From: Candidatus Eremiobacteria bacterium
Lineage (GTDB): Bacteria; Vulcanimicrobiota; Vulcanimicrobiia; Vulcanimicrobiales; Vulcanimicrobiaceae
DNA length: 64,000 nt
Reading direction: 5' to 3'
Assembly (NCBI GenBank): GCA_963737065.1
Contig: CAVTRC010000001.1
Span: forward strand, 1,440,001 to 1,504,000
Shown piece by piece: positions 7,753-41,962 of the stretch; position 1 is the stretch's first letter, and each line of letters opens with the position of its first letter. The notes beneath the pieces are model-generated. The model made no database searches. It was not told where the DNA came from and saw only the letters and a program-made list of their open reading frames with translations. The position numbers and the translations under genes are program-made.

Positions 7753-9642
7753 TTATGCGATCAACTCCTCGACGGCGGCAGCGATGCGCGCCACATCGAG
7801 ATGCGCGATGCACGCATAGTCGCGGCAATGCTCCTTCGTATCGCCGGGATGGCAGCGAAACGTCGGACGCACCGTCGCCGTGCGCGGGCCAAGCGGCGCC
7901 CAGCGATCCGGGAAATCCGACTGAAACGGAAAGATGCCGACCGTCGGCGCACCAACGGCTGCGGCGACGTGCATCGCACCCGTCGTAATCCCGACAAACG
8001 CGCGCGCGTGCTGCGCGAGCGCCCCGAACGCACCAATCCCAAGCCGCCCTGCGATGTTTAGCAGCGATCCCTCGACGGGCGCCGCGTTCGACGCGCGGAT
8101 CGCCTCATTGATCCTCAGATCCGCGTTCGAACCGCTCAGTAAAATAGGCACGCGGAACATTCGTTGCAGCGCGCGTGAGAGCGCTGCCCAGCCTTCGGCG
8201 GGCCAGATACCGCGCTTCGTTGCAATCGCATTCGTCGGATGCAAGATGATGTACGTGTCCTTCAGCAGGGTCAGCGAGACACGGAGTTCGTCGGCGTGCG
8301 CGATATCGTTCGCCGTAGGAACGAATCGTGGCCGTATATCATCGGTGTCGCAACCGATGGCTCGCGCGTAGTCGAGGAGAATATCCGCCCATGGACTCGT
8401 AACATCGCCGCGTTCGCTTCGGACCACGACGCGTTTCGTGAAGCGGCCGGAATACAAGCGCCGCGCTTGACCCACGCGTATCGGAATCCGCGCGAGCTTC
8501 GCGACGCGCGCGGTACGCGGCGTCGCCCACGTTATGACGCACGCGTCGTATCCGCGCTCGTGCAGCAGGTGCGCGAGGGCCGTCTCATCGCCTCCCTCAT
8601 CGATAAGGACGTCGTTGACATCGGGCACACGTTCCAGCGTACTGCGATGTGCCGGCAACGTTAGGGCGTCGACGCGCGCGTAGCGTGAATGCAGTGCGCG
8701 TGCGACAACGCTTGCAACGAGCGAATCGCCGATCCCGCCACCCGCGCAGTACAGCAGCGCGCGATCGGTCACGCGTTGAGCGTCCGCGCCAACTCGCGCA
8801 TGATACATCCCGTCCAAAAACCTGGCTCGAGCAAGTGCGCGAACGACGCGAGGCGCGTTCTCGCTCGTCGCGATTCCGGCATAAATCGCAAGCAGCGGAT
8901 CGGGGAAGAGCCATCTCGCGCGAATCAGATTCATGCGGTGCGCACCGGTCGCCATGCGAACACGGCGCGACGGCTGCTTGTCGAGGAACTTGCGCGCCAT
9001 GCGCGCTTTCTCCATCGCCTTGCGCGTTTCGACTTCAAGCGTGTTTTCATCGGGCGGCTTGATGTGCCAGATGTAGGCATCCCACGCAAACTTCCAACGC
9101 ATTCCCGCTTCGCGCAGCCGGACGCCGAGTTCCGTGTCTTCCCATCCGTAGAGATGAAACGCTTCATCGAAGGCGCCGACCGCAACAAGCGAATGTTTGG
9201 GAATCGACACGTTGCACGTGCACAGAAACGCACGCGAGTAATTCGCAAACGTAGGTGCCGGGCGCTCTTCATAAGATGGCACATTGAGGATCGGTCCGTT
9301 CACTACGAAGTTGCTCGTCGTATGCGCCGCGTCATGCGCGGCAAGATAGCCCGGCGGTGCTACGACGTCATCGTCGCAAAACAGTACGAGATAGCCGCTT
9401 GCGCGTTCGATTCCGCAATTGCGCGCCTTGCCCCGATTCGGCTCGCCTTCGTAGACGTACGCGACGGGATAGACGCCGCGCGCGGCTTGCCGTTCGACGA
9501 CGCTCTTCGTTTCGTCGGTGGAACCGTTGTCGACGACGATCACTTCAAATGGCGGTGCGCCCGTCTGTTCTTCGAACGACGCGAGCGCGTGCTCGAGATA
9601 CGAGGCGCGGTCCTTCGTGGCAATGACGATGGAGATCCGCAT
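7753..9642 (-). CDS. GT2 + GT9 glycosyltransferase in a single ORF as sequenced; probably two genes (GT2 9642-8769, GT9 8772-7753) joined by a 1-nt insertion
   Basis: N-half has GT2 motifs (IATKDR, VDNGSTD, FCDDD, YGWEDTELG). C-half has GT9 motifs (GGGIGDSLVA, GITTGAMHVAAAVGAPTVGIF). See the finding on the junction. Confidence 0.85.
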   Translation of the reverse strand: MRISIVIATKDRASYLEHALASFEEQTGAPPFEVIVVDNGSTDETKSVVERQAARGVYPVAYVYEGEPNRGKARNCGIERASGYLVLFCDDDVVAPPGYLAAHDAAHTTSNFVVNGPILNVPSYEERPAPTFANYSRAFLCTCNVSIPKHSLVAVGAFDEAFHLYGWEDTELGVRLREAGMRWKFAWDAYIWHIKPPDENTLEVETRKAMEKARMARKFLDKQPSRRVRMATGAHRMNLIRARWLFPDPLLAIYAGIATSENAPRVVRALARARFLDGMYHARVGADAQRVTDRALLYCAGGGIGDSLVASVVARALHSRYARVDALTLPAHRSTLERVPDVNDVLIDEGGDETALAHLLHERGYDACVITWATPRTARVAKLARIPIRVGQARRLYSGRFTKRVVVRSERGDVTSPWADILLDYARAIGCDTDDIRPRFVPTANDIAHADELRVSLTLLKDTYIILHPTNAIATKRGIWPAEGWAALSRALQRMFRVPILLSGSNADLRINEAIRASNAAPVEGSLLNIAGRLGIGAFGALAQHARAFVGITTGAMHVAAAVGAPTVGIFPFQSDFPDRWAPLGPRTATVRPTFRCHPGDTKEHCRDYACIAHLDVARIAAAVEELIA

Positions 9643-31458: not shown

Positions 31459-32265
31459 ATTTTCACTTATCGCGACGAACGCAGATTGTTTGCGCTCATA
31501 ACCGTCATTATCGTGGCCGCACTGGTTGCTATATTGCAAATCAACGCGGAACGATCGGGCAATGAAAGCCCGCTTTCGACGGCCGTAGTGAGCCTCGCGT
31601 CGTTCATCGAGACCGCGTCGACCGTTACGGTTAGTAGTGTGCGCGGCGCAGGTAGCGCGGTCGTTGCGATCCCGCAACTCGAGCGCGAAAACAAAGAACT
31701 GACCGCGCGCAACCGCTCACTCGAACAAGAGAATACGCAGTTGCACGAACTCGCCGCGCAATATGCGAGCGAAGCGAGCGTTCGTCCCATCGTCGACACC
31801 GCGCCGCGCGGCGTGGAAGCGCGCGTGGTAGGCTTCCCGCCGGAAAACGAATCGCGCACGGTAACGATCAATAAGGGCAGCAGCAGCGGTATTCATAAAG
31901 ACGACGGCGTTCTTGCGGGCGGCGGAATCGTCGGTCGCGTCGAATCGGTGACGCCCTTTGCCAGTAAGGTCGTGTTGATTACCGACTACACGAGCCGGAT
32001 CCCCGCGGTGACACGTCGCGGACGCTATTGGGGCATCGCGCGCGGCAATCTTTCGACCGTACGGGTCGAGTACATTCCGCAAGACGCAAAAATCAAAGCT
32101 GGTGACATCGTCGTCACGGGCGAAGGCCGTTCATTCCGCTCCGGCATTCCAATCGGCACGATTGCACGCGTCGAACGCGGCGATGCAACGCTCTATCAAA
32201 CCGCAATTCTGCAACCGTCCGCTGATATCGGCTCCCTCGATCGCGTTGTCGTTGTCCCGAAATAG
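31459..32265 (+). CDS. mreC: Rod shape-determining protein MreC (start uncertain: ATT 31459 or TTG 31486)
   Basis: N-terminal TM, coiled coil (LERENKEL), INKGSSSGI, GIVGRV, VLITD, GDIVVTG, GIPIG. Confidence 0.9.
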   Translation: MFTYRDERRLFALITVIIVAALVAILQINAERSGNESPLSTAVVSLASFIETASTVTVSSVRGAGSAVVAIPQLERENKELTARNRSLEQENTQLHELAAQYASEASVRPIVDTAPRGVEARVVGFPPENESRTVTINKGSSSGIHKDDGVLAGGGIVGRVESVTPFASKVVLITDYTSRIPAVTRRGRYWGIARGNLSTVRVEYIPQDAKIKAGDIVVTGEGRSFRSGIPIGTIARVERGDATLYQTAILQPSADIGSLDRVVVVPK

Positions 32266-32773
32266 GCTTCAACTTTCGCGTCCAATTGCTCCGACGTGGT
32301 GGATTTCCGCGCTCTGGCTCATCGCGGCTGCACTGCTGCAGGTTACGCTCGTGCATCTTGCCGCATTTCGAAACGTTGTTCCGAGCATCGTCTTCGTTGC
32401 CGTCGTGTGGTACGCAATCCGCGTCGATCTTTGGCAAGCTGCCGCATACGGGCTTGCGGGCGGATTGCTGGAAGATCTACTCGCTACGGGCACCGGAGCC
32501 GCGTTTACTATCTCCACCGTAATCGGCGCAATTACCGCGCAAGTGATTTCGCGCGGATTTTTCGCCGATTCATTTCCACTCGTCGCGACGATCACGATAG
32601 CCGCGACGTTCGCCCGTCAGTTAGTGTTTTGGGTCGTGTGGGGCTTCGAAGGCTATCCGCCGGGTCTGGCAACGATGCATTTTCACGAAGCGATCGTTCA
32701 AGCCGCAATGAACGCCGCGGTCATGATGCTCGTTATGTTGGTCCTACGACGTTTTAGCGACGATTACGGATGA
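32252..32773 (+). CDS. mreD: Rod shape-determining protein MreD
   Basis: Multi-TM protein with GLAGGLLEDLL, lying between mreC and mrdA. Start approximate. Confidence 0.85.
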   Translation: MSRNRLQLSRPIAPTWWISALWLIAAALLQVTLVHLAAFRNVVPSIVFVAVVWYAIRVDLWQAAAYGLAGGLLEDLLATGTGAAFTISTVIGAITAQVISRGFFADSFPLVATITIAATFARQLVFWVVWGFEGYPPGLATMHFHEAIVQAAMNAAVMMLVMLVLRRFSDDYG

Positions 32774-34641
32774 TCGTCGACCGCCGGCGCGTACCGCGCA
32801 TTTCATGGCAAAAATCGCCGTGGCGCATCGCGGGTTTTGCCACAATCGTCATCGCTGCGATCGTAGCGCTAATCGTTCGATTGGTTCAAGTCCAAGTGGT
32901 GCAGGGCGAAGCGTTTCGCGCCGCGGCGCAAGCGAACCAGATTCGGTTGATCGAAGTCGCGGCGCCGCGCGGAATGATCCGCGACCGTAATGGCGACGTA
33001 ATGGTTCGCAGCCGTCCGTCGTTCGTCGTCGCGTTGATTCCTTCGGAAGTTACCGACGTCAAAGGCGATCTCCGTACGCTCGCTTCGATCCTCCGCGTTC
33101 CGGAATCGTCGCTGTGGCAACAGCTGCTTCATCATCACGGCGTCAATTACAAGAACTTCGACGAAGTTCAAGTCTACGAACCGTACGGTCCGGTCATCCT
33201 CGCCTCGGACTTGCCCGTCGCGAAAGTCGCGCGTCTATCGGAGCAAATGACCGACATGCCGGGCGTCGATCTCGAAGTGCAACCGATTCGCGATTATCCC
33301 AGAGGACCGGTCGGTGCAGCCGTCTTCGGCTACGTCGGCCAAATCACGGAAGCGGAATACACTAAGCGCAAAAACGAGGGCTACACGCCGAACGACGTTA
33401 TTGGTAAGGACGGGCTGGAGTGGGAGTACGACAAGTATCTGCGCGGCATTGCGGGCGGACAACAAGTCGTCGTCGATGCGCAAGGTCAAGTCGTGCCGAG
33501 CATCAAGCTGCCCTCGCGTCAAGCGACCCCAGGCGATACGCTCGTCACCACGATCGATTGGCGATTAGAACAGATCGTGCAACAAGCGCTCGTCGACGGC
33601 ATCCGTAAATGGGCCGGCAAGAAAAAACTCGCCGGGGGCGTCGTGGTCGAAGATCCGTGGACCGGCGGCATTCTTGCGATGGCGAGCGTGCCGCAATTCG
33701 ACCCGAACGACTTCGCTGCGGACAATTGGAAAAAAGTTTCGAAGTATCTGCTCGATCCCACCGATCCGTTGTTCAATAACGCAATCGGTGCAGCGACACC
33801 GACCGGTTCGACGTTCAAAATGGTAACGGGCAGCGGCGTCCTTACCGAAGGGCTCGTGAAGCCGCACGAAGTCGTCTACGACAGCGGCGCGTGGGACTGC
33901 GGCGGCTATATCGCGCGCGATATCGCGTCGGGCGGGCTCGGCAACACGACGTTCGTGCCGGCGCTCGCGGCGTCGTCCGACGGATTCTTCTACCAAATGG
34001 CGTGGCGCCTAGGACGCGTACGGCTAGAGAAGTGGGCGCGCCTTTTCGGACTAAGCTCGAAGACGGGAATCGATCTGCCGGGTGAAAACGCCGGCAACTG
34101 GCCGACGCCTGAATGGGAAATGAAGAATTTCGGCGTGCCCATGGAACCGAGCGAAGTGTGCATGCTCGGTATCGGCCAAGGCGCGATGCAAGCCACGCCG
34201 CTGCAGATGGTCAACATCGCATCCGCCGTCATCAACGGCGGCACGTTATGGCATCCGCATATCGCAAGCCGCATCATCGATCCGCACGGCAACGTCGTGA
34301 AGACGTTCTCGCCGCAAATCATTCGTCACATTCCCGCGAAGCAAGACGCGCTCAAATACGTGCGCGAAGGCATGGCGAAAGTAACCGATCCAGGCGGCAC
34401 CGCGTACGGCTGGAAAATCAAAGACTTGCCGTTCTCCGGCAAGACCGGTACAGCGGAAACGGGGAACGGCGCGGGCGCCAACACGACGTGGTTCATCGCC
34501 TGGGCGCCATCCGATCATCCGAAACTCGCGATGGCGGTCTTCGTCGACCGTTCCGGCGGTTACGGCGCGTCCGTCGCAGCGCCGATCGCACGCGACATTT
34601 TAGTGAAGTTCTTCAAGAAGTCGCCTGACATCATTCAGTAA
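32770..34641 (+). CDS. mrdA: Penicillin-binding protein 2
   Basis: APRGMIRDRNG, RDYP, GKDGLE, GSTFK (SxxK), SSD, KTGTAE. Confidence 0.93.
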   Translation: MIVDRRRVPRISWQKSPWRIAGFATIVIAAIVALIVRLVQVQVVQGEAFRAAAQANQIRLIEVAAPRGMIRDRNGDVMVRSRPSFVVALIPSEVTDVKGDLRTLASILRVPESSLWQQLLHHHGVNYKNFDEVQVYEPYGPVILASDLPVAKVARLSEQMTDMPGVDLEVQPIRDYPRGPVGAAVFGYVGQITEAEYTKRKNEGYTPNDVIGKDGLEWEYDKYLRGIAGGQQVVVDAQGQVVPSIKLPSRQATPGDTLVTTIDWRLEQIVQQALVDGIRKWAGKKKLAGGVVVEDPWTGGILAMASVPQFDPNDFAADNWKKVSKYLLDPTDPLFNNAIGAATPTGSTFKMVTGSGVLTEGLVKPHEVVYDSGAWDCGGYIARDIASGGLGNTTFVPALAASSDGFFYQMAWRLGRVRLEKWARLFGLSSKTGIDLPGENAGNWPTPEWEMKNFGVPMEPSEVCMLGIGQGAMQATPLQMVNIASAVINGGTLWHPHIASRIIDPHGNVVKTFSPQIIRHIPAKQDALKYVREGMAKVTDPGGTAYGWKIKDLPFSGKTGTAETGNGAGANTTWFIAWAPSDHPKLAMAVFVDRSGGYGASVAAPIARDILVKFFKKSPDIIQ

Positions 34642-34657
34642 CGGCGACGCTCACTCG

Positions 34658-34978
34658 CTACGTCACGTGTGCTCTCGCCGCGATGACCATGAGGGCGGCG
34701 TCGGCCGCTTCGCGGACGGACTCGTCGGGATCGTCGCGGCGAAGTGTCCCGAGTTGATCGATACACCACGGTTCGCCGACCATCACCAGGCGTTCGACGA
34801 GGTCGAACCGGCCCGCGACGTCGAGTGACGGTTCCGTTTGCTCTTGCGGCTCCCGCGATGGTGCTTCGATCGCGTGCGTTGCTCGCCCGCGTCGCAGCAG
34901 CGCGCCGATGACGAAGAGCAGCGCGCCGATGACGAAGAGCGCTAAAAGAACGTTTGCGAGCGGGTTACTCGACAGCAA
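34658..34978 (-). CDS. Small single-TM protein with C-terminal HEAT-like helices (module copy B)
   Basis: N-terminal TM, then RFDLVERL...DPDESVREAADAAL. Overlaps the stop of the large upstream gene. Start approximate (TTG 34978). Confidence 0.7.
   Translation of the reverse strand: MLSSNPLANVLLALFVIGALLFVIGALLRRGRATHAIEAPSREPQEQTEPSLDVAGRFDLVERLVMVGEPWCIDQLGTLRRDDPDESVREAADAALMVIAARAHVT
34896..34940. repeat. Perfect 21-bp tandem duplication
   Basis: agcagcgcgccgatgacgaag at 34896-34916 and 34917-34937; encodes LFVIGAL twice. Confidence 0.95.
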
Positions 34979-37900
34979 TGTGCGCTGCACCGCGCAGCGC
35001 TTCCATAACGTCCGCAAGCCCGTCGTCGAGCGTACGGTTGACGCTGGAGGTCAATACGCGATGGAACTCTTCGATCGGCAGCTCGTTGAGGACGGTCAAG
35101 ACGTTGAGCAGCTCGGCTCGGTAGTGCTCGAGGCCGTCGACTCGGTTTTCGTCGTTAAAAATCGTCGTGCCGAGCAGCTGCGCGTTGATCAACCACGGTG
35201 CAACTCCACCGACGGGTACAACTTCGAGTTCGGGCAGTAACGCGCGAACGACATCAAGTTCGACGCTGCCCTCGACGCGAATCACGCCGTCCGGCGGGCT
35301 CTTCGGACGCCCGGTCGGCGCAAACGCGAGATCGTTCACTAGATTCACGAGAGCGTCGCGGCTTTCACGATCTTCGAGATCCTTGCCGGTGATCTGCAGT
35401 CGCGGCATGCGTAAACGCACGAAGAGTTTCTCGAGCGGCGCACGCAGCGCGCGACTCGCGGATGCGAAGGTTGCCGTGAGTTGCGGCGAACCGTCGGCGA
35501 CCGATTCCGGAAACAGCATCCGCATCGCGAAGAGATGCTGGATCAAGCCGCCTGCAGAATCACTGCGCTCCAGCATGCGTAGCGTATGGCCCAGACGCTC
35601 CGGCGTGAAATCGACGTATAGCACCGGCGTCGAAAAATCTTCGTGGAGCGCCGCAGCGGGCGCGACCAGTGCTTCGGTTTGCGCAGCGACGATCTCGGCG
35701 ATCGCGCGCGGCGGCTCCGATTCGACGATTTCCGGGTGCGGTTGTCGCTGCGGTTCTGCTTCGGGCGGTGGCGGCGGTTCGTACGCCGGTGCTTCAGCGG
35801 GAAAGATGCGCGCAATCGAAAGCGCACTGCCGGCAACGGATTCGCTGAGCGAGGGCTGCGCTTGGACGCGAACCGTCGGCGCGGCGATGGCAAACGTCGT
35901 CCCTTCGCCCCATTCGAAAACGGCCCGCGTGTCGAGCGGTGTTCCCGCGGCGAGCGGCGACATCACCATCATTTCCCAGCGAACGCGCAATTCGACCTGC
36001 GGATTCAGATCGGCGAGCACCAGACCCCGTGCGGACCACAATTGCGACGCACCGGCATCGTCGTTGACCGGCATGCCGTTGATCGTCGTGGACGACGGAA
36101 CGTACACCGCGAGATTCGTCGGAACAACGCGAATCGCCAACCGTTCCGCCGGACCGTCTCCCTCGTTGCGCAGGCGCACTTCGTAATACAGCCGTTCGCC
36201 GGCGTCGACCACTTCCGCCGGAATCGCGAACAACTGCGCGCTTTGCGCGAAGTGTGCTTCCGAATGCGTTGCAATATCGAGCGATGGAAACGGCACGGGG
36301 CTGATGCCTTTGGCGTGCAGCCATCCCTCGAGCGCCAGCGAGCGATTTCCACTAATCGCGCGCAACAATCGCAGTGTCACGCGGGCGGTGTGCGTGTTTT
36401 CGGCAGCGATATCGGCAAATGCAAGACCGTCCCGGTCGCGGCGCGCATCGACCGCGCGCTCGACAACGAGTTCGGGCGGCAGCGAGAGCGACAAACGTGC
36501 ATCGCGTAGAATATCCGAACCGCTGTTATGTACGCGAACGACGAGATCGACGGTGCGATTCGGACGCAGCGGTTCATGCGATTCCAGTTCCCACTCGACG
36601 CGATCGACGCTCGCGCGCGAACGCACGACGATCGATGCCGTGCCGAGATCGACCGCGCCGTCCGCGTGCTCTAACACAACCCCGAGCGATGCGGTCGAGC
36701 GATCGGGTACGCGCGACGCGATCGATGCATGCACCGTGAAGATTCGCTCCTGATGAGGCACCACAACCCCGAGTTCGACGGGGCCGGCATACAGGGACGG
36801 TTCAGCACCGCCTTCACTGACCCGAACGTCGGTGAGATACAGGCCCGGAACGAGACGCAAGCGAACGTCAGATTCCGCCGCCGTTCCGTCGTTGTAGACG
36901 TGAACGTCGAACGTGACCTCGTTGCGCGCGTGCGCGACGCTGTGATTTGCCTCAACGAAATTGCGCGCGCGGCTGAAACGCGGGGACACGCGCACTGCCA
37001 AACGCCGGCTGAACGAACGCTCACCGTTTTTCCAGCGCAACGATGCATCGATCGGCAGCACCGTTTTTCCGGCAGCGGGCACGGCAACAGTTGCGGCGAT
37101 GCCGACTTCCACCATTCGTCCAGCGGGAAGCGAGCCGAGCGAAAACGTGAGATCCGGAATCGAATCGTCGCTCACCGGCTGCGCGTCCATGTGCGCGGAA
37201 CCGGGCGCATACATCAGTCCGGCAGGCAGGACAAACGACACCTGCACGCGTTGCGCAATGCCGGTCCCATTATTCACCGCGCGTAGAATCATTGGAACTT
37301 GCATGCCGGGCGTCACTGCATCATCGCACAGGACGCTGAATGCAGTGTCTTCGCCGTCGAAATCAACCGGCGATACGACGACGATCTCGGCCGATGCGAT
37401 AGCAAATTCGGCCGATTCACGTGAACCGGCGGTCCCGGAAATTTTGATTCGTGTGCCGTCCGCGAGCGGTGAGTCAATCTGCGCCTGATATTCGACGAGC
37501 ACCGATTGTCCCGGCGAGAGACGCTCGCTGACGACGGTCGCGCTGTCGTAGTCAAACGCTTCGCCTTCGATGCCCGCGATGAGACGGCCGTCCACGCGCG
37601 CGCTACGCGCAATGTACGTCGTATGTTCGGGGGCGGGAAGAATCACCACGACATCGTGCGCGCTCGACGCGCCGCTGTTGCGAACGGTGGCGCGAATCGA
37701 AATGACATCGCCGGGATGGGGCTGCGCCGGCGCCGATAACGTCACGAGCGTCGACGCGTTGTGCAGTTCCGGACGGCTGCGTACCGCGACGCGGGCGATG
37801 TTCGACCCGACGAGCTCCGTTTGATCGGTGACGAGCGCTGCTTGGAACATCAGTTCGCTCGCGTCTTCGATGATGTCGTTGACGCGGAACGTGCACGTGA

Positions 37901-38210
37901 CGCGGCGCTGCGCGTTTGATTCGAGATCTGCAACTGGCGCGCCGTTGGGATCGATGAAACTCGCGTCGCTTTCCAGCGGCGCGTCGTCGACGAGATCGCC
38001 GCCGGCAACGTGCTCGCAGCCTTGCGGATGCGCAAAGCGCACGCGAAGGCCGGTCGCCGCCGCACCGCCAAGATTCGAAAAACTGAACGTCGCGCGAATC
38101 GTTTCCCCGGGAAGAACCGTGCGCGTGGGATCCAGCGCCAACGTCCGAAGGCTCTCGATCAAAGCCGGAGAGCCCGGGGCAAAAATGCCGGTCAACGACG
38201 TTGACGCCAC
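34965..38210 (-). CDS. Large protein with six DUF11-like Ig repeats and a helical C-terminal domain (module copy B)
   Basis: 1081 aa; repeated PG-x-V-x6-N-x-G...LP...Y-x-PGS-x3-(D/N)G motifs; Pro/Glu-rich linker; no signal peptide; purine-rich RBS before the GTG. Confidence 0.85.
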   Translation of the reverse strand: MASTSLTGIFAPGSPALIESLRTLALDPTRTVLPGETIRATFSFSNLGGAAATGLRVRFAHPQGCEHVAGGDLVDDAPLESDASFIDPNGAPVADLESNAQRRVTCTFRVNDIIEDASELMFQAALVTDQTELVGSNIARVAVRSRPELHNASTLVTLSAPAQPHPGDVISIRATVRNSGASSAHDVVVILPAPEHTTYIARSARVDGRLIAGIEGEAFDYDSATVVSERLSPGQSVLVEYQAQIDSPLADGTRIKISGTAGSRESAEFAIASAEIVVVSPVDFDGEDTAFSVLCDDAVTPGMQVPMILRAVNNGTGIAQRVQVSFVLPAGLMYAPGSAHMDAQPVSDDSIPDLTFSLGSLPAGRMVEVGIAATVAVPAAGKTVLPIDASLRWKNGERSFSRRLAVRVSPRFSRARNFVEANHSVAHARNEVTFDVHVYNDGTAAESDVRLRLVPGLYLTDVRVSEGGAEPSLYAGPVELGVVVPHQERIFTVHASIASRVPDRSTASLGVVLEHADGAVDLGTASIVVRSRASVDRVEWELESHEPLRPNRTVDLVVRVHNSGSDILRDARLSLSLPPELVVERAVDARRDRDGLAFADIAAENTHTARVTLRLLRAISGNRSLALEGWLHAKGISPVPFPSLDIATHSEAHFAQSAQLFAIPAEVVDAGERLYYEVRLRNEGDGPAERLAIRVVPTNLAVYVPSSTTINGMPVNDDAGASQLWSARGLVLADLNPQVELRVRWEMMVMSPLAAGTPLDTRAVFEWGEGTTFAIAAPTVRVQAQPSLSESVAGSALSIARIFPAEAPAYEPPPPPEAEPQRQPHPEIVESEPPRAIAEIVAAQTEALVAPAAALHEDFSTPVLYVDFTPERLGHTLRMLERSDSAGGLIQHLFAMRMLFPESVADGSPQLTATFASASRALRAPLEKLFVRLRMPRLQITGKDLEDRESRDALVNLVNDLAFAPTGRPKSPPDGVIRVEGSVELDVVRALLPELEVVPVGGVAPWLINAQLLGTTIFNDENRVDGLEHYRAELLNVLTVLNELPIEEFHRVLTSSVNRTLDDGLADVMEALRGAAHIAVE

Positions 38211-38259
38211 AAGCGTGTCTTTCCCTTCAACGAGAGTTGCGACCTATGGTAGCGCGCGC

Positions 38260-38667
38260 CTAGTCCGTACGTTGCGAGTCGAGCAGCAAGAGTGTCTGCG
38301 CGATCCGGTCGGCACGCAGGCCCGGGTGTTCGGCGAGAAACGATTCAACGCTGCGACGCCGGCCGCTCGAGATCAGCACGTGTGCAGCGGCCAGTGACAC
38401 CGCTTCCGCAGGATCGTTCAACGCGTGTTCGAGCAGCTGCTGAGACCGTTCGTCTTCGAGCGCCGCGACGGCAAAGACCAAGTCGCAACGGGCCGATTCG
38501 GAAAGCCCGGCGAACTCGTCGCCCGCTTCGTTCGTCCAATCGGTCGTCGCATACACCGGCTCTTCCGATCGCTGCACCGGTACACGCTCGGGCCGCCGGG
38601 GCGCCATCCATGCGTACACGCCGATTGCGGCGCCCGCGATGATGATAAGGATAACGGCGACGGTCAC
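38260..38667 (-). CDS. Small single-TM protein with C-terminal HEAT-like helices (module copy A)
   Basis: TM VAVILIIIAGAAIGVYAWM, then RCDLVFAVAAL...LEHALNDPAEAVSLAAAHVL. GTG at 38667 lies just after the large gene stop. Confidence 0.75.
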   Translation of the reverse strand: MTVAVILIIIAGAAIGVYAWMAPRRPERVPVQRSEEPVYATTDWTNEAGDEFAGLSESARCDLVFAVAALEDERSQQLLEHALNDPAEAVSLAAAHVLISSGRRRSVESFLAEHPGLRADRIAQTLLLLDSQRTD

Positions 38668-38677
38668 GAGCGTGAAC

Positions 38678-41600
38678 CTACACCGCGTGTGCGTGGAGCG
38701 ACGTGCGCACGACGTCGAGTGCGGCATCGAGCGCGATATCTCGCCGGCGCTGCAGCGCGTCGAGGAATTCGGCCGCATCCGTTTCCGCAAACGCGTCCAA
38801 CCGTTCGACCAGCATCGCGCGATAGTGCGCGAGCTGCGGCGTTCCATCGGGCAACAGCCGCGCAGCGATCGCCCATGGCAATGCCGATGCAAGTTCCGCG
38901 TCGGCGAGACGCTCGCTCATCTCCGCGATCTCCGAGGGATCGAACGCACCGCGCAGCACGACGTTGACGTTCGGCGTCTCCGCCGGCACACCGCGCGCGC
39001 CCGCAATCTCGTGCAGAAGTCGCTCGATCGTCGCTCGCATCGATGGCGTTTCGATGTCGCGGGCAGCGATGACGTAATTCGGCAAGCGCAGCTTGATGAA
39101 CAGACGATCGAGTTCCTCGCGCAGTACGTCGCGCATTGATGTTACGGACGTGATGTGCGTATCGCCGATTGCTTCGGGGAAGAAGGCGCGCAACGCGAAG
39201 AGATGGGTGATCAACCCGTCGAAGCGCGCTTCATCTAAGAAGCGAAGAATACGCGCGTGCCGGTCGGCGGTAAACGTCACCGCGACCCCGACGCCACCCT
39301 CTGCCGCGAGCGACCCTTCGACGACTCCCAATTCAAACGCGTCGGTGCCGGCGATCTCGTCTTGCACGCCGTTGCTCGCGGCGAGCGCCGGATACTCATT
39401 GTGCGCGAGCCAGCCGCGCGTCCCGTGCCCGTTGTGCGCGTCGCCGTTGACGGGCGTCGCGGGCGGAAGTTCCATGAAGCGCTCTTCGGTCAGTGCCCGC
39501 TGCGTCGCTCCGCCGAACGCCGGTCCGAGCATACCGTCCAAGCCGAACGGCAACCCCGGAATAGCATTTGCGAAGACGGGCGTCGCGCGCACCTTCAGTT
39601 CGTTCGATAGGATTTCGTCGTCGCGGTCGCCGTCGTAGCGGATGTTCGCGATACGAACGATCGCCTCGCCCGCCGGCAACTGGTTGTGCACGACATCACG
39701 GAAACGAATCGTTGCATCGACGCCGGGATCGACGTCGTTGAGCACGATGCCGCGCCCGCTCGCAAGCGCGGAGAGCGCTCCGACGTCGCGGATCGGCACG
39801 TCGTTGACCGTCGTGGAGTTCGGAACGTAAATGAGTTTGTCCGGCTGGCTGCAGAGGATTTGCACGCGGCGCGCCGGACCGTCGCCGCCGTTGCGGACGT
39901 GTAGCGCCCATTCGATCGTTTCACCCGCGTCGACCATATCCAACGGTTCGCTGCGCAGCGTGCCGACCGAGAAATCCGGCTCGGCCGTCGTAACGATCGT
40001 CAGCCGTTCGAGCGGCAGCGGCAACATCGCATCGGACGTCAAGACTGCATCCACGGTGACCGGAAACTCTCTCGCGAGACTGCGTAGCAAACGCAATCCG
40101 AGCCGAGCTTCCGCAGTGGCGCCCGGCGGAATCTCACCGAAGACGAGTTTCGACTTTTCGCGCGTCGCGCCGTCGACCGTCTCCAGCCGCGCTTCCGGCG
40201 AAACGTACAGACGCACGCGGACATTGTGCGCAACGTCAGTGCCGACGTTTGTCACACGAACGGCAACGTCGGCAAGCTGATTCGGACGCAACAGCTCTTC
40301 GCTTTCGAGTTGCAGATGTGACGTCAGCCGCGAGAACGCGGGATGGGAATCCACGCGCCAGAGCACATCGCCGAGCGGCGTTTCGCCGAGTTCACGTGAA
40401 TGGAGGCTTGCCCCGAGGCGCAATTCGCTGCGATCCGCATACGGCGTGCGCACGCGCGCGCGCACGTGAAACTTCCGCGTCGTGTACGGTTCGAGTGTTC
40501 CGATCTCGCCGGCATCGCCGTCGAGTGCGACCCGAGAAGCTTTTTCAGTTACCCGAATTTCATCGAGCGCCGAATCAACCCGCAGGTGCAGCACGCAATC
40601 GGTCGCCGGAGCACTGCCGTCGTTCGCAACGGCGATCGTTGCCTCCACTTCTTCGGCGGGACGCACGACGGCGGCGCCGACGCGTGCAATCGTGTTGCGG
40701 CGCGGTGCGAGCGACGGTTGCGAGTGCACGACGACGGTGCGTTCGAAACGGCGCTGCGATACCTCGGCCGATGGCTCCCACTCGACGTTCGCAGCGATCG
40801 CGAGCGCTGCGCCGTCGGCAAGCGGCGATGTGACGATCGCTTCACAGTGCAGGTCGACACGTTCATCCGCATCGATCCGCCCGAGTTCAAAAACGAGTCC
40901 GTCTTTTTTCTTCGCTTCGCGCAGCGGGCGCCCGTCGATTTGTGTTGCGCCGCGAACGGGAATCAGCGTATCCGGTAGTTCGATCGTCGCAACGACGCCT
41001 TCGGCCGCGGCCGACCCGGCGTTGTGTGCGCAAAGCGCGAGCGTTACGCGTTGTCCCGGGCGAACATCGTGCGTCGGCTCGACGGTAAATGACGTGCCGT
41101 CGCCGTCGAAGTGCGGCGCGGCACGGACGACGAGCGATGCGGGCTGCAGCTCGAATGCGGCGGTCTCTTGTGACGCGACCGATGCACGCGCGGAGATCAC
41201 GGTTCCGTCGTCGAGCGGTGAATCGATGCGCACGCGATAGACGAGCGTGGTGCTGCCGCTTGCAGGCAGCGCGGTCGTGACGATCGGCGCATACACGCGA
41301 TCGAACGGTAAGCCGAGATCGCGTTCGACCTCGCGTCCATTGACGCGGACCGAGCCGGGCACGTAGCTCGTATGTTCCGGAACCGGCGCAACGACCACGA
41401 CGTCGCGCGCGCTCGATTCACCCGCATTGTGCAACCGAACGGTGATGTGCGCTTCCGTTCCGGGCAGCGGTTCGGAACGCGCTTCGATTGCAACACTGGT
41501 CAGCGCATTTTCCAGCTGCGGCCGGCTGCGCGCAATCAGGCGCACGATGTTCGAGCCGACCGGCGCGACTTCGAAGGAAGCCACCGCGGCCTGCAGTTCG

Positions 41601-41962
41601 ATCGTCGTTCCGTTTTCGATTGCACCCGCTACGCTGTATGCAATTTCAAGGCGGCGTTCTTCGCCGGGACCGACGTCCCCGATGTGCGCACCCGCTCGCG
41701 CGAGCAGCGGCGAATTGCCCTGTTCGTCGTCGAGATCCGCGCCGTCGAGTTGCCCGGTACTGACGAGATACACGAGTCCGTCGGGTAAATTAAAACGCAC
41801 GCGGACACCGGTTGCGAGCGCTCCGCCTTGATTGCGAAACGTAAATGCAGCACGCACCGTCATTCCAGGTTCCAACTCGCGGTCGGGCGAAACGACGAGC
41901 GTTCGGAGACCTTCCGGTAACGTCGGAGCTCCTGGCGCAAAAACTTCGGAGAGCGTGCGCAT
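38678..41962 (-). CDS. Large protein with six DUF11-like Ig repeats and a helical C-terminal domain (module copy A)
   Basis: Start MRTLSEVFAPG at 41962 aligns with copy B (LTGIFAPG); six NxG repeats; C-terminal GLITHLFALRAFFP...LDRLFIKLRLP. Confidence 0.85.
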   Translation of the reverse strand: MRTLSEVFAPGAPTLPEGLRTLVVSPDRELEPGMTVRAAFTFRNQGGALATGVRVRFNLPDGLVYLVSTGQLDGADLDDEQGNSPLLARAGAHIGDVGPGEERRLEIAYSVAGAIENGTTIELQAAVASFEVAPVGSNIVRLIARSRPQLENALTSVAIEARSEPLPGTEAHITVRLHNAGESSARDVVVVAPVPEHTSYVPGSVRVNGREVERDLGLPFDRVYAPIVTTALPASGSTTLVYRVRIDSPLDDGTVISARASVASQETAAFELQPASLVVRAAPHFDGDGTSFTVEPTHDVRPGQRVTLALCAHNAGSAAAEGVVATIELPDTLIPVRGATQIDGRPLREAKKKDGLVFELGRIDADERVDLHCEAIVTSPLADGAALAIAANVEWEPSAEVSQRRFERTVVVHSQPSLAPRRNTIARVGAAVVRPAEEVEATIAVANDGSAPATDCVLHLRVDSALDEIRVTEKASRVALDGDAGEIGTLEPYTTRKFHVRARVRTPYADRSELRLGASLHSRELGETPLGDVLWRVDSHPAFSRLTSHLQLESEELLRPNQLADVAVRVTNVGTDVAHNVRVRLYVSPEARLETVDGATREKSKLVFGEIPPGATAEARLGLRLLRSLAREFPVTVDAVLTSDAMLPLPLERLTIVTTAEPDFSVGTLRSEPLDMVDAGETIEWALHVRNGGDGPARRVQILCSQPDKLIYVPNSTTVNDVPIRDVGALSALASGRGIVLNDVDPGVDATIRFRDVVHNQLPAGEAIVRIANIRYDGDRDDEILSNELKVRATPVFANAIPGLPFGLDGMLGPAFGGATQRALTEERFMELPPATPVNGDAHNGHGTRGWLAHNEYPALAASNGVQDEIAGTDAFELGVVEGSLAAEGGVGVAVTFTADRHARILRFLDEARFDGLITHLFALRAFFPEAIGDTHITSVTSMRDVLREELDRLFIKLRLPNYVIAARDIETPSMRATIERLLHEIAGARGVPAETPNVNVVLRGAFDPSEIAEMSERLADAELASALPWAIAARLLPDGTPQLAHYRAMLVERLDAFAETDAAEFLDALQRRRDIALDAALDVVRTSLHAHAV

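Follow-up and report, generated by a model that had tools for sequence, protein, structure and literature searches.

Four minus-strand genes of a Candidatus Eremiobacteria bacterium (family Vulcanimicrobiaceae), here designated bigA, smallA, bigB and smallB, lie in a 64,000-nucleotide stretch of contig CAVTRC010000001.1 (positions 1,440,001 to 1,504,000; the window) and constitute, on comparative sequence evidence, two anciently duplicated copies of a conserved two-gene module in which a large protein of immunoglobulin (Ig)-like domains is paired with a small membrane protein. The reading that we favour, and to which we would give a probability of about one half, is that the big protein forms a rod of six Ig-like domains in the cytoplasm, with a small, ZipA-like protein anchoring it at the inner membrane. 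The big protein would be made without a signal peptide and stay in the cytoplasm, and prediction places its alpha/beta C-terminal domain (CTD) against the HEAT-like domain of the small protein; the latter is predicted from the positive-inside rule to span the membrane once, with a cytoplasmic HEAT part and an N-terminus that lies at the membrane or outside it. The six-domain rod would be held on a flexible leash of 50-90 residues at the inner face of the cytoplasmic membrane. An Ig-like domain is ~4 nm long and, assuming this length for each domain, the rod would measure roughly 25 nm, its strongly conserved distal Ig1 and a conserved linear motif following Ig6 being possibly free for partner binding. 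A structural role, as a tether, spacer or scaffold under the membrane, appears most likely.

The Duplicated Locus

The earlier note on this DNA, made from the sequence alone, described four co-oriented and tightly packed open reading frames (ORFs) on the minus strand, and all four are present (Table 1); in the window either candidate start of smallB overlaps the bigB stop. At ~1,090 amino acids (aa) the big proteins are large, and the label giant that they had been given does not suit them. The library gene call for bigA (P0005, 1061 aa) begins 33 codons downstream of the ATG at 41962 (window 41864-41962, minus strand). The N-terminal lead omitted by P0005 is conserved in orthologs (tblastn from residue 1, most loci) and shows 48% identity between the two big proteins, which makes the longer start at 41962 preferable.

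Comparison of the window proteins gives 35% identity between bigA and bigB across 802 aa (E 1e-130). Domain by domain, all parts from the N-terminal lead through the six domains to the CTD, the post-Ig6 segment included, show 27-48% identity, the linker alone falling to 9%. The two proteins are thus collinear paralogs from the N-terminal lead through the CTD, as had been proposed, and the CTD is common to both, their C-terminal ~210 aa being 29% identical (E 1e-22).

The small proteins carry one N-terminal hydrophobic helix apiece, a transmembrane (TM) helix within the first ~30 residues. BLASTP detects no similarity between smallA and smallB (E 3.3); hhalign aligns the profile built from 63 smallA orthologs with that from 33 smallB orthologs over 102 columns at 96.1% probability (E 3.2e-9), and the R-x-D-L-V ... 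DP-x-E-x-V-x2-AA pattern to which attention had been drawn therefore reflects real homology. This profile match indicates that smallA and smallB are remote paralogs, which points to duplication of the big and small genes as a pair. As to the HEAT label for the small partners, 56 of the 63 smallA orthologs match HEAT_2 (PF13646) at E<=0.01 (best 4.8e-7), and the window's own copies fall under the Pfam cut-off (17.6 bits against 27.7 for smallA; HEAT at E 0.43 for smallB). No ZipA family model occurs among the Pfam and NCBIfam matches at E<=1.

Distribution and History of the Module

More than 120 clusters of bigA orthologs were found at 63-100% identity, named hypothetical protein, uncharacterized repeat protein or DUF11 domain-containing protein and nothing else. 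A distant branch of ~940-aa proteins belongs, where named, to Candidatus Lustribacter of the same family, and every named relative is from the Vulcanimicrobiaceae (Eremiobacterota), the only group in which the module has so far been seen. Gene order was followed in 80 fetched loci, a sample outside which stand 47 further relatives and the distant Lustribacter-type homologs. By record name, 67 of the loci are Vulcanimicrobiota-type and 6 are unclassified, and 7 from one series of metagenome-assembled genomes (MAGs) carry the names of other phyla (L003, L004, L009, L020, L023, L041 and L056, titled Acidiferrales, Acidoferrum, Verrucomicrobiia or Babeliales). The bigA genes of these seven records are 61-77% identical to that of the window, have the same gene order and nest inside Vulcanimicrobiota clades, and the titles look mistaken.

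The smallA gene directly follows bigA in 68 of the 69 loci with at least 450 bp of downstream sequence; rare co-occurrence of the big and small genes, which the earlier note had named as speaking against a common system, is not what these loci show. The smallA start, taken as the first in-frame ATG, GTG or TTG from 12 nt before the bigA stop, lies -8 to +34 nt from that stop in all 70 loci with a callable start and overlaps it in 29. The exception, L010 (8738-9546), has no detectable smallA; its bigA match ends at residue 912, with 22 CTD residues left and a stop at 9058, and this bigA is probably broken or misassembled on a short contig.

That there is no system, bigA being a lineage-specific hypothetical repeat protein that merely stands beside an unrelated small membrane protein, is very improbable. 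Gene order is broadly conserved in the family (the upstream aminotransferase gene is kept in 79 of 80 loci), which makes adjacency alone weak, but the genes were duplicated as a pair, the small genes being remote paralogs as the big genes are paralogs, and big-gene stops overlap small-gene starts. Moreover, a trimmed B module has kept exactly the CTD, accompanied by a smallB-like gene in four of five loci, and the complex prediction described below passed with all controls at 0.00.

Thirteen of the 80 loci end too early to be judged. Among the 67 resolved loci, 34 have the full arrangement of two big and two small genes (2x2), 28 have the A pair only and 5 have the A pair with a B gene reduced to its CTD; smallB orthologs are found downstream of bigB. 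The A-only loci run straight into the end of the PBP2 gene in 27 cases, and in one (L073) other genes follow smallA. The CTD-only B gene (L026, L028, L033, L036 and L039) is open and unbroken and begins at or near the smallA stop. In L026 and L036 the stand-alone B-type CTD ORFs comprise 196 and 213 aa with a start that overlaps the smallA stop, and in L028, L033 and L039 the first in-frame start gives ORFs of 296-307 aa, a shorter start presumably lying near the smallA stop. A smallB-like ORF comes after the CTD-only gene in L028, L033, L036 and L039, the L039 copy being devoid of the hydrophobic helix, and none was found at this position in L026.

Trees were built with FastTree from 122 family members and with IQ-TREE (LG+C20 PMSF, quick search) from 45. 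In both, bigA and P0141 form one clade and bigB and P0128 another, each with support 100; the bigA and bigB clades are reciprocally monophyletic with a similar or mirrored species order within each, and therefore the duplication predates the sampled radiation, in keeping with the age that had been ascribed to it. A-only species stand beside 2x2 species on the tree (L032/L037, L075/L044 and L070/L059), and the presence of B changes at least six times on the bigA tree (39 rows with B, 24 without). This pattern indicates that the B pair has been lost repeatedly, or cut to its CTD in one clade, and that the module consists at its core of a single big and a single small gene instead of the 2x2 arrangement.

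The earlier note had proposed an obligate heteromeric 2x2 assembly (filament, lattice or scaffold) needing both copies. In favour of this, 34 of the 67 resolved loci contain both pairs unbroken and side by side, and each of the two old paralog clades follows the species tree; the B-type CTD found beside a full A module in five genomes, four of them with a smallB-like gene, hints that B may act with A. Such an obligate A/B heteromer is nevertheless distinctly unlikely, because 28 of the 67 resolved loci are A-only and nested among 2x2 species, five have a CTD-only B, and the changes of B presence, at least six in number, imply that the A pair works without B.

In L013 (13265-16945, plus strand), a chromosome-level MAG, smallA reads in frame into bigB to give one ORF of 1226 aa that comprises the TM-HEAT part and the whole of bigB. 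L007 and other close relatives of L013 have a stop and a short gap between smallA and bigB, and the read-through may be an assembly indel; the fusion, if real, would put the HEAT part and the bigB start on the same membrane side. A stretch of ~1.2 kb separates smallA from bigB in L025 (13660-14900), and longer bigB ORFs occur in L020 (1305 aa) and L025 (1328 aa).

Architecture of the Big Proteins

The six repeats reported for the big proteins are borne out by a full-length AlphaFold model of bigA (62-member family alignment; mean pLDDT 83.6, pTM 0.40), in which six beta-sandwich domains (~1-792) are followed by a conserved post-Ig6 segment, a disordered part (813-881, pLDDT <50) and the CTD (891-1094). 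The Pfam family DUF11 (PF01345) is matched by bigA at 101.9 bits (E 3.5e-29) and by bigB at 81.1 bits (E 9.8e-23), both above the cut-off of 24.6, and the NCBIfam model TIGR01451 at 81.4 and 65.6 bits, above its cut-off of 24. DUF11/TIGR01451, CARDB and NPCBM_assoc are the only Pfam and NCBIfam families recognised in the big proteins, the last ~290 residues being without a match. For A2M and thioester domains Pfam returned a single A2M match, in bigB (E 0.19; 12 bits against a cut-off of 21), and the Pfam and NCBIfam scans detected neither RTX repeats in the four proteins nor a catalytic family or motif. Full-length bigA has no match among PDB sequences at E<=0.01, so that a full-length correspondence to a characterised family, raised earlier as a possible objection, was not found; the sole PDB match of the family profile covers 32 residues of 2kut_A (E 0.0035).

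Measured as mean column identity among 25 bigA orthologs, conservation is highest in Ig1 (residues 34-145; 0.91, with 55% of the columns invariant) and amounts to 0.84 in Ig5 and Ig6, 0.82 in the post-Ig6 motif, 0.72 in the CTD, 0.70 in Ig3 and 0.31 in the linker. Within the post-Ig6 segment A793, P795, F797, A798, N799, I801-L804, F806, G807, G810, G813 and P814 are invariant in these orthologs, the pLDDT of bigA is <50 from residue 813, and an LPF-like motif is likewise present in P0210, P0184, P0222 and P0150, which are distant relatives; the segment is a possible linear binding motif.

Foldseek matches the full bigA model best to chains of the intracellular Ig-like arrays of the ciliary central apparatus (7som_D, E 1.9e-24; 7sqc; 9ijj), and further matches include titin (3b43, 5.4e-16), alpha-2-macroglobulins (4u48, 7.4e-15; 5a42, 9.4e-15), complement proteins and integrins. 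All of these have TM-scores of ~0.1, and the modelled likeness is taken to tell of the repeated domain type alone, not of the assembly.

Folded alone from 50 aligned sequences, the CTD gives an AlphaFold model with pLDDT 93.0 and pTM 0.90, the succession of its elements suggesting two beta-alpha-alpha units. Against Pfam no member of the set of 50 falls below E 0.02, the best PDB match by sequence has E 0.28, and Foldseek returns nothing at E<=0.001 from either the PDB (best E 0.6, TM 0.14) or the viral models of BFVD (best E 0.27); the ESM Atlas gave no usable match. H920, D969 and R976 are invariant in 62 family members, and E971, Y1047 and R953 are nearly so. A CTD profile finds 246 matches at E<=0.001 among 1.84 billion representative proteins; those of ~740-1,300 aa end with the domain, and many shorter matches are fragment-like. 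Among the 23 long matches scanned, 17 carry DUF11, CARDB or NPCBM_assoc and 6 have no Pfam family. Two apparent fusions of a CTD with a small protein (P0129 and P0142) look like frameshifted metagenomic gene calls and were not used as evidence.

Predicted Docking of the CTD on smallA

Complex prediction was carried out with the bigA CTD (alignment A2, which takes in the bigB CTD) and smallA residues 40-135 (alignment A3), in three runs and with 3 controls. The ipSAE values of the CTD-smallA pair were 0.78, 0.74 and 0.77 (median 0.77), against 0.00 for the best control, the partner pLDDT was >=83 and the runs shared at least 80% of their contacts. Of 157 solved complexes 116 attain this score mark, as do 2 of 215 mismatched pairs; these counts apply only roughly here because our own unpaired alignments were used in the folding. 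Neither a sequence search nor a fold search returned a similar solved complex. The earlier note had left it to structure prediction whether bigA and smallA form an interface, and these models support one, between the bigA CTD and the HEAT part of smallA.

On the CTD side the predicted interface comprises residues 25-32 and 69-84 (bigA 904-911 and 948-963), with the LRxxLDRLFIKLRxPxY helix common to A- and B-type CTDs, and on the side of smallA residues 57-65, 87-100 and 125-131. Conservation of the CTD interface is 0.64 versus 0.52 in the rest of the domain, a value reached by 245 of 10,000 random sets. Together with the position of smallA after bigA in 68 of 69 loci and the overlapping or abutting genes, the complex prediction makes membrane tethering by the small proteins, as suggested earlier, plausible. 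The contact between CTD and small protein would be the core of the module; five species keep the B module as a CTD, four of them with the small partner.

It is conceivable that the membrane complex of CTD and HEAT part is in itself the functional core, for example with a regulatory, signalling or enzymatic role, the Ig rod being an accessory and dispensable arm. Five divergent species, four of them with a smallB-like gene, have an intact stand-alone reading frame for the B-type CTD, H920, D969 and R976 are invariant in 62 members with E971, Y1047 and R953 nearly so, and a CTD that matches no fold leaves room for an activity. We regard this as rather unlikely: nothing catalytic, whether family or motif, came up in the scans, in the bigA lineage the rod is never missing, its domains Ig1 (0.91), Ig5 (0.84) and Ig6 (0.84) exceeding the CTD (0.72) in conservation, and the nearly invariant R953, L958, R959 and P961 sit in the predicted protein-protein interface, not in a pocket.

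Membrane Side and Export

Topology was assessed from hydropathy and from counts of K and R in the 15 residues on either side of the TM helix, and absence of signal peptides by a hydropathy heuristic. Mean K+R is 3.46 after and 0.06 before the TM helix in smallA, with an excess on the C-terminal side in 62 of 63 sequences, and 3.12 and 0.67 in smallB, with the same excess in 31 of 33. Under the positive-inside rule the positively charged flank is the cytoplasmic side, which puts the HEAT part in the cytoplasm, and smallA is predicted to be an N-out/C-in membrane anchor for the bigA CTD. A signal-peptide-like hydrophobic start is found in none of 122 big proteins, distant relatives included (median maximum 12-residue hydropathy 0.81), in agreement with the earlier description of these proteins as signal-less, and Pfam gave no further domains in the big proteins that would represent a sorting signal or an adhesive domain. 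Extracellular DUF11/CLIPPER stalks typically contain an intramolecular Lys-Asp-Asn isopeptide triad (PMC12617251). In the Ig region of the big proteins no alignment column exceeds 80% Lys among 25 bigA orthologs and none reaches 60% in the 62-member alignment, as counted per column and not by mapping the triad on structure; the isopeptide typical of such stalks is therefore not conserved in the big proteins.

The main rival to a cytoplasmic tether is an exported envelope protein. The big proteins would leave the cell interior by a non-classical route and could be stalks like those of fibrillar adhesins, periplasmic spacers or S-layer-like components; the small protein, inserted in the inner membrane with a periplasmic HEAT part, would anchor or assemble them. 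DUF11/CLIPPER, CARDB and NPCBM_assoc are typical of cell-surface stalks (PMC12617251), and the cultured relative Vulcanimicrobium alpinum is diderm, so that a periplasm exists (PMC9758169); the locus also adjoins the cell-wall genes mreC and mrdA, and bacterial alpha-2-macroglobulins (4u48 and 5a42) are among the fold matches. Export is nonetheless unlikely, if the least so of the competing explanations. None of the 122 family members has a signal-peptide-like N-terminus, the charge bias of the anchor makes the partner-binding domain cytoplasmic in 62 of 63 smallA and 31 of 33 smallB proteins, and no RTX repeats, sorting signal, thioester or A2M domain (A2M at E 0.19, under the cut-off) and no conserved isopeptide Lys were found. 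Furthermore, transporter or secretion genes, including HlyD and ABC families, are absent from the 18 neighbouring proteins scanned.

Several points weigh against the cytoplasmic tether. DUF11, CARDB and NPCBM_assoc are overwhelmingly extracytoplasmic families and some extracellular DUF11 domains have no isopeptide (PMC12617251), and the genome is Arg-rich and Lys-poor overall, bigA having 10 K against 98 R. The membrane side is predicted from hydropathy and charge counts, and the complex score is calibrated only roughly, as noted above. Conservation of the smallA interface is 0.70 versus 0.71 in the rest of the fold (5,680 of 10,000 random sets reach this), and the Foldseek likeness is generic for beta-sandwich arrays, alpha-2-macroglobulins, complement, titin and integrins coming close behind the ciliary matches. 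The evidence is computational throughout, and the structural-tether role is a guess about purpose.

Comparison with Known Systems

To our knowledge the module of big and small genes has no characterised counterpart. Literature searches on Vulcanimicrobium and Eremiobacterota, on DUF11/PF01345/TIGR01451 and on DUF11 with cytoplasmic Ig-like and HEAT domains, with subscription journals outside their coverage, showed no description of the pair among the titles and abstracts listed, and in the literature searched a cytoplasmic Ig-domain tether is not described in bacteria. The matches in the "tafi" paper were to DUF1102, not DUF11.

ZipA is a bitopic protein in which a TM helix, a basic stretch and a linker lead to a cytoplasmic domain that captures the C-terminal part of FtsZ at the inner membrane. 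The predicted topology and logic of smallA and bigA are the same, by analogy only: there is no sequence relation, the captured part is a folded 200-aa domain and not a short tail, and what is tethered is an Ig-domain rod, where FtsZ is a tubulin homolog. The Ig-like (ASH/MSP-type) scaffolds of the ciliary central apparatus and titin resemble the bigA model in being cytoplasmic tandem beta-sandwich rods that act as structural scaffolds, but they are eukaryotic, match with TM ~0.1 and have no sequence homology to bigA (PDB sequence search empty at E<=0.01).

Bacterial alpha-2-macroglobulins are inner-membrane-anchored periplasmic beta-sandwich arrays, often encoded beside a PBP gene. Those of the ECAM/YfhM type share with the big proteins the long beta-sandwich array at the inner membrane, with the fold matches 4u48 and 5a42, whereas the big proteins have no thioester, bait region or lipoprotein signal, their anchoring is predicted on the opposite membrane side, and the PBP2 gene here is convergent, not co-oriented. 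Unlike type 1-secreted RTX adhesins, the locus encodes no RTX repeats and no adjacent ABC transporter or membrane-fusion protein. Fibrillar adhesins with DUF11 (CLIPPER, PF01345) stalks likewise consist of a tandem DUF11/CARDB rod with a different domain at one end (PMC12617251). In contrast to these, the big proteins possess no signal peptide, adhesive tip, sorting signal or conserved isopeptide Lys, and bigA ends in a CTD that matches no fold and for which docking to a membrane anchor, on the cytoplasmic side, is predicted.

The Vulcanimicrobiaceae are a little-studied family of soil and peat bacteria. Their only cultured member, V. alpinum, is diderm and forms rods or filaments of 1.5-92 µm with vesicular internal membranes (PMC9758169). 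None of the fetched loci carries the name of this species (strain WC8-2). The pair may bear on the particular cell biology of Eremiobacterota, since it has so far been seen in one family-level lineage only. The DUF11 family was recently renamed for its "Extracellular Region" role, and tandem DUF11/CARDB domains are treated as surface markers (PMC12617251); a conserved, signal-less DUF11/CARDB array on the cytoplasmic side would, if true, break this rule and enlarge the small set of bacterial sub-membrane scaffolds by an Ig-rod tether. A more specific picture can be offered only tentatively, namely a ~25-nm cytoplasmic Ig-rod with a new-fold CTD clasped by the HEAT anchor, the conserved tip of which would keep some cell structure, be it a filament, the machinery of wall synthesis or intracytoplasmic membranes, a fixed distance away from the membrane on its inner side. 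With its confident fold (pLDDT 93), no PDB or viral match and a predicted HEAT clasp, the CTD is a compact structure target, and the natural series of genomes with a full 2x2, a rod-less B or the A pair only provides ready-made comparisons.

Genomic Context

Downstream of the operon, and convergent with it, lie mrdA/PBP2, mreC and maf, and upstream, divergent, a class I/II aminotransferase gene. The convergence on mreCD-mrdA reported earlier holds for mrdA/PBP2 and mreC, which are identified, and less well for mreD, the ORF so named having no hidden Markov model match. PBP2 is kept in 63 of the 66 loci classed as 2x2, CTD-only-B or single-next-to-PBP2, and the aminotransferase gene in 79 of 80 loci. 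Since mreC-mrdA is conserved about as well as an unrelated aminotransferase gene, the arrangement reads as general synteny and not as a functional link, and the cell-shape role that had been considered possible finds no support other than gene position.

Table 1. Genes of the locus, regions of their products and neighbouring reading frames, in window coordinates
Feature	Position	Strand	Description
bigA	38678-41962	-	1094 aa; ATG at 41962; signal-less; six DUF11-type beta-sandwich domains, linker and C-terminal domain
bigA residues 1-792	39587-41962	-	N-terminal lead strand and Ig-like domains 1-6 (secondary structure, pLDDT)
bigA residues 793-837	39452-39586	-	Conserved post-Ig6 segment (PVFANAIPGLPFGLDG...), mostly predicted disordered
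bigA residues 838-890	39293-39451	-	Variable disordered linker; pLDDT 30-39
bigA CTD, residues 891-1094	38681-39292	-	Alpha/beta; predicted smallA docking site
smallA	38260-38667	-	135 aa; GTG start 10 nt past bigA stop
smallA regions			TM helix 1-19, basic stretch, linker, HEAT-like helical domain ~44-131
bigB	34965-38210	-	1081 aa; collinear paralog of bigA
bigB CTD (B-type)	34968-35633	-	29% identity to bigA CTD, E 1e-22
smallB	34658-34978 or 34658-34990	-	~106-110 aa; TTG 34978 or GTG 34990 start
smallB regions			TM helix and HEAT-like hairpin
mrdA/PBP2	32770-34641		Convergent with operon; NCBIfam equivalog, 520.8 bits against cut-off 455
ORF between mreC and mrdA	32296-32757 or 32102-32773	+	mreD by position only; no Pfam/NCBIfam match; 34-54% identity in related loci
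ORF, 110 aa	43310-43642	+	No Pfam/NCBIfam family
ORF, 223 aa	43648-44319	-	No Pfam/NCBIfam family; present only in L001 and L002, the two closest loci
ORF, 389 aa	46131-47300	+	No Pfam/NCBIfam family

A scan for promoters and terminators was uninformative, with 0 promoter-like sites and 12 terminator-like sites versus 9.6 expected. The whole 64-kb window contains no tRNA genes by tRNA scan and no Rfam family at gathering score, and the PADLOC-DB models of anti-phage defence gave 0 families for all four proteins (E<=0.01). In six 2x2 loci (L002, L007, L009, L012, L017 and L025) extra ORFs occupy 2-4.5 kb between smallB and the PBP2 end.

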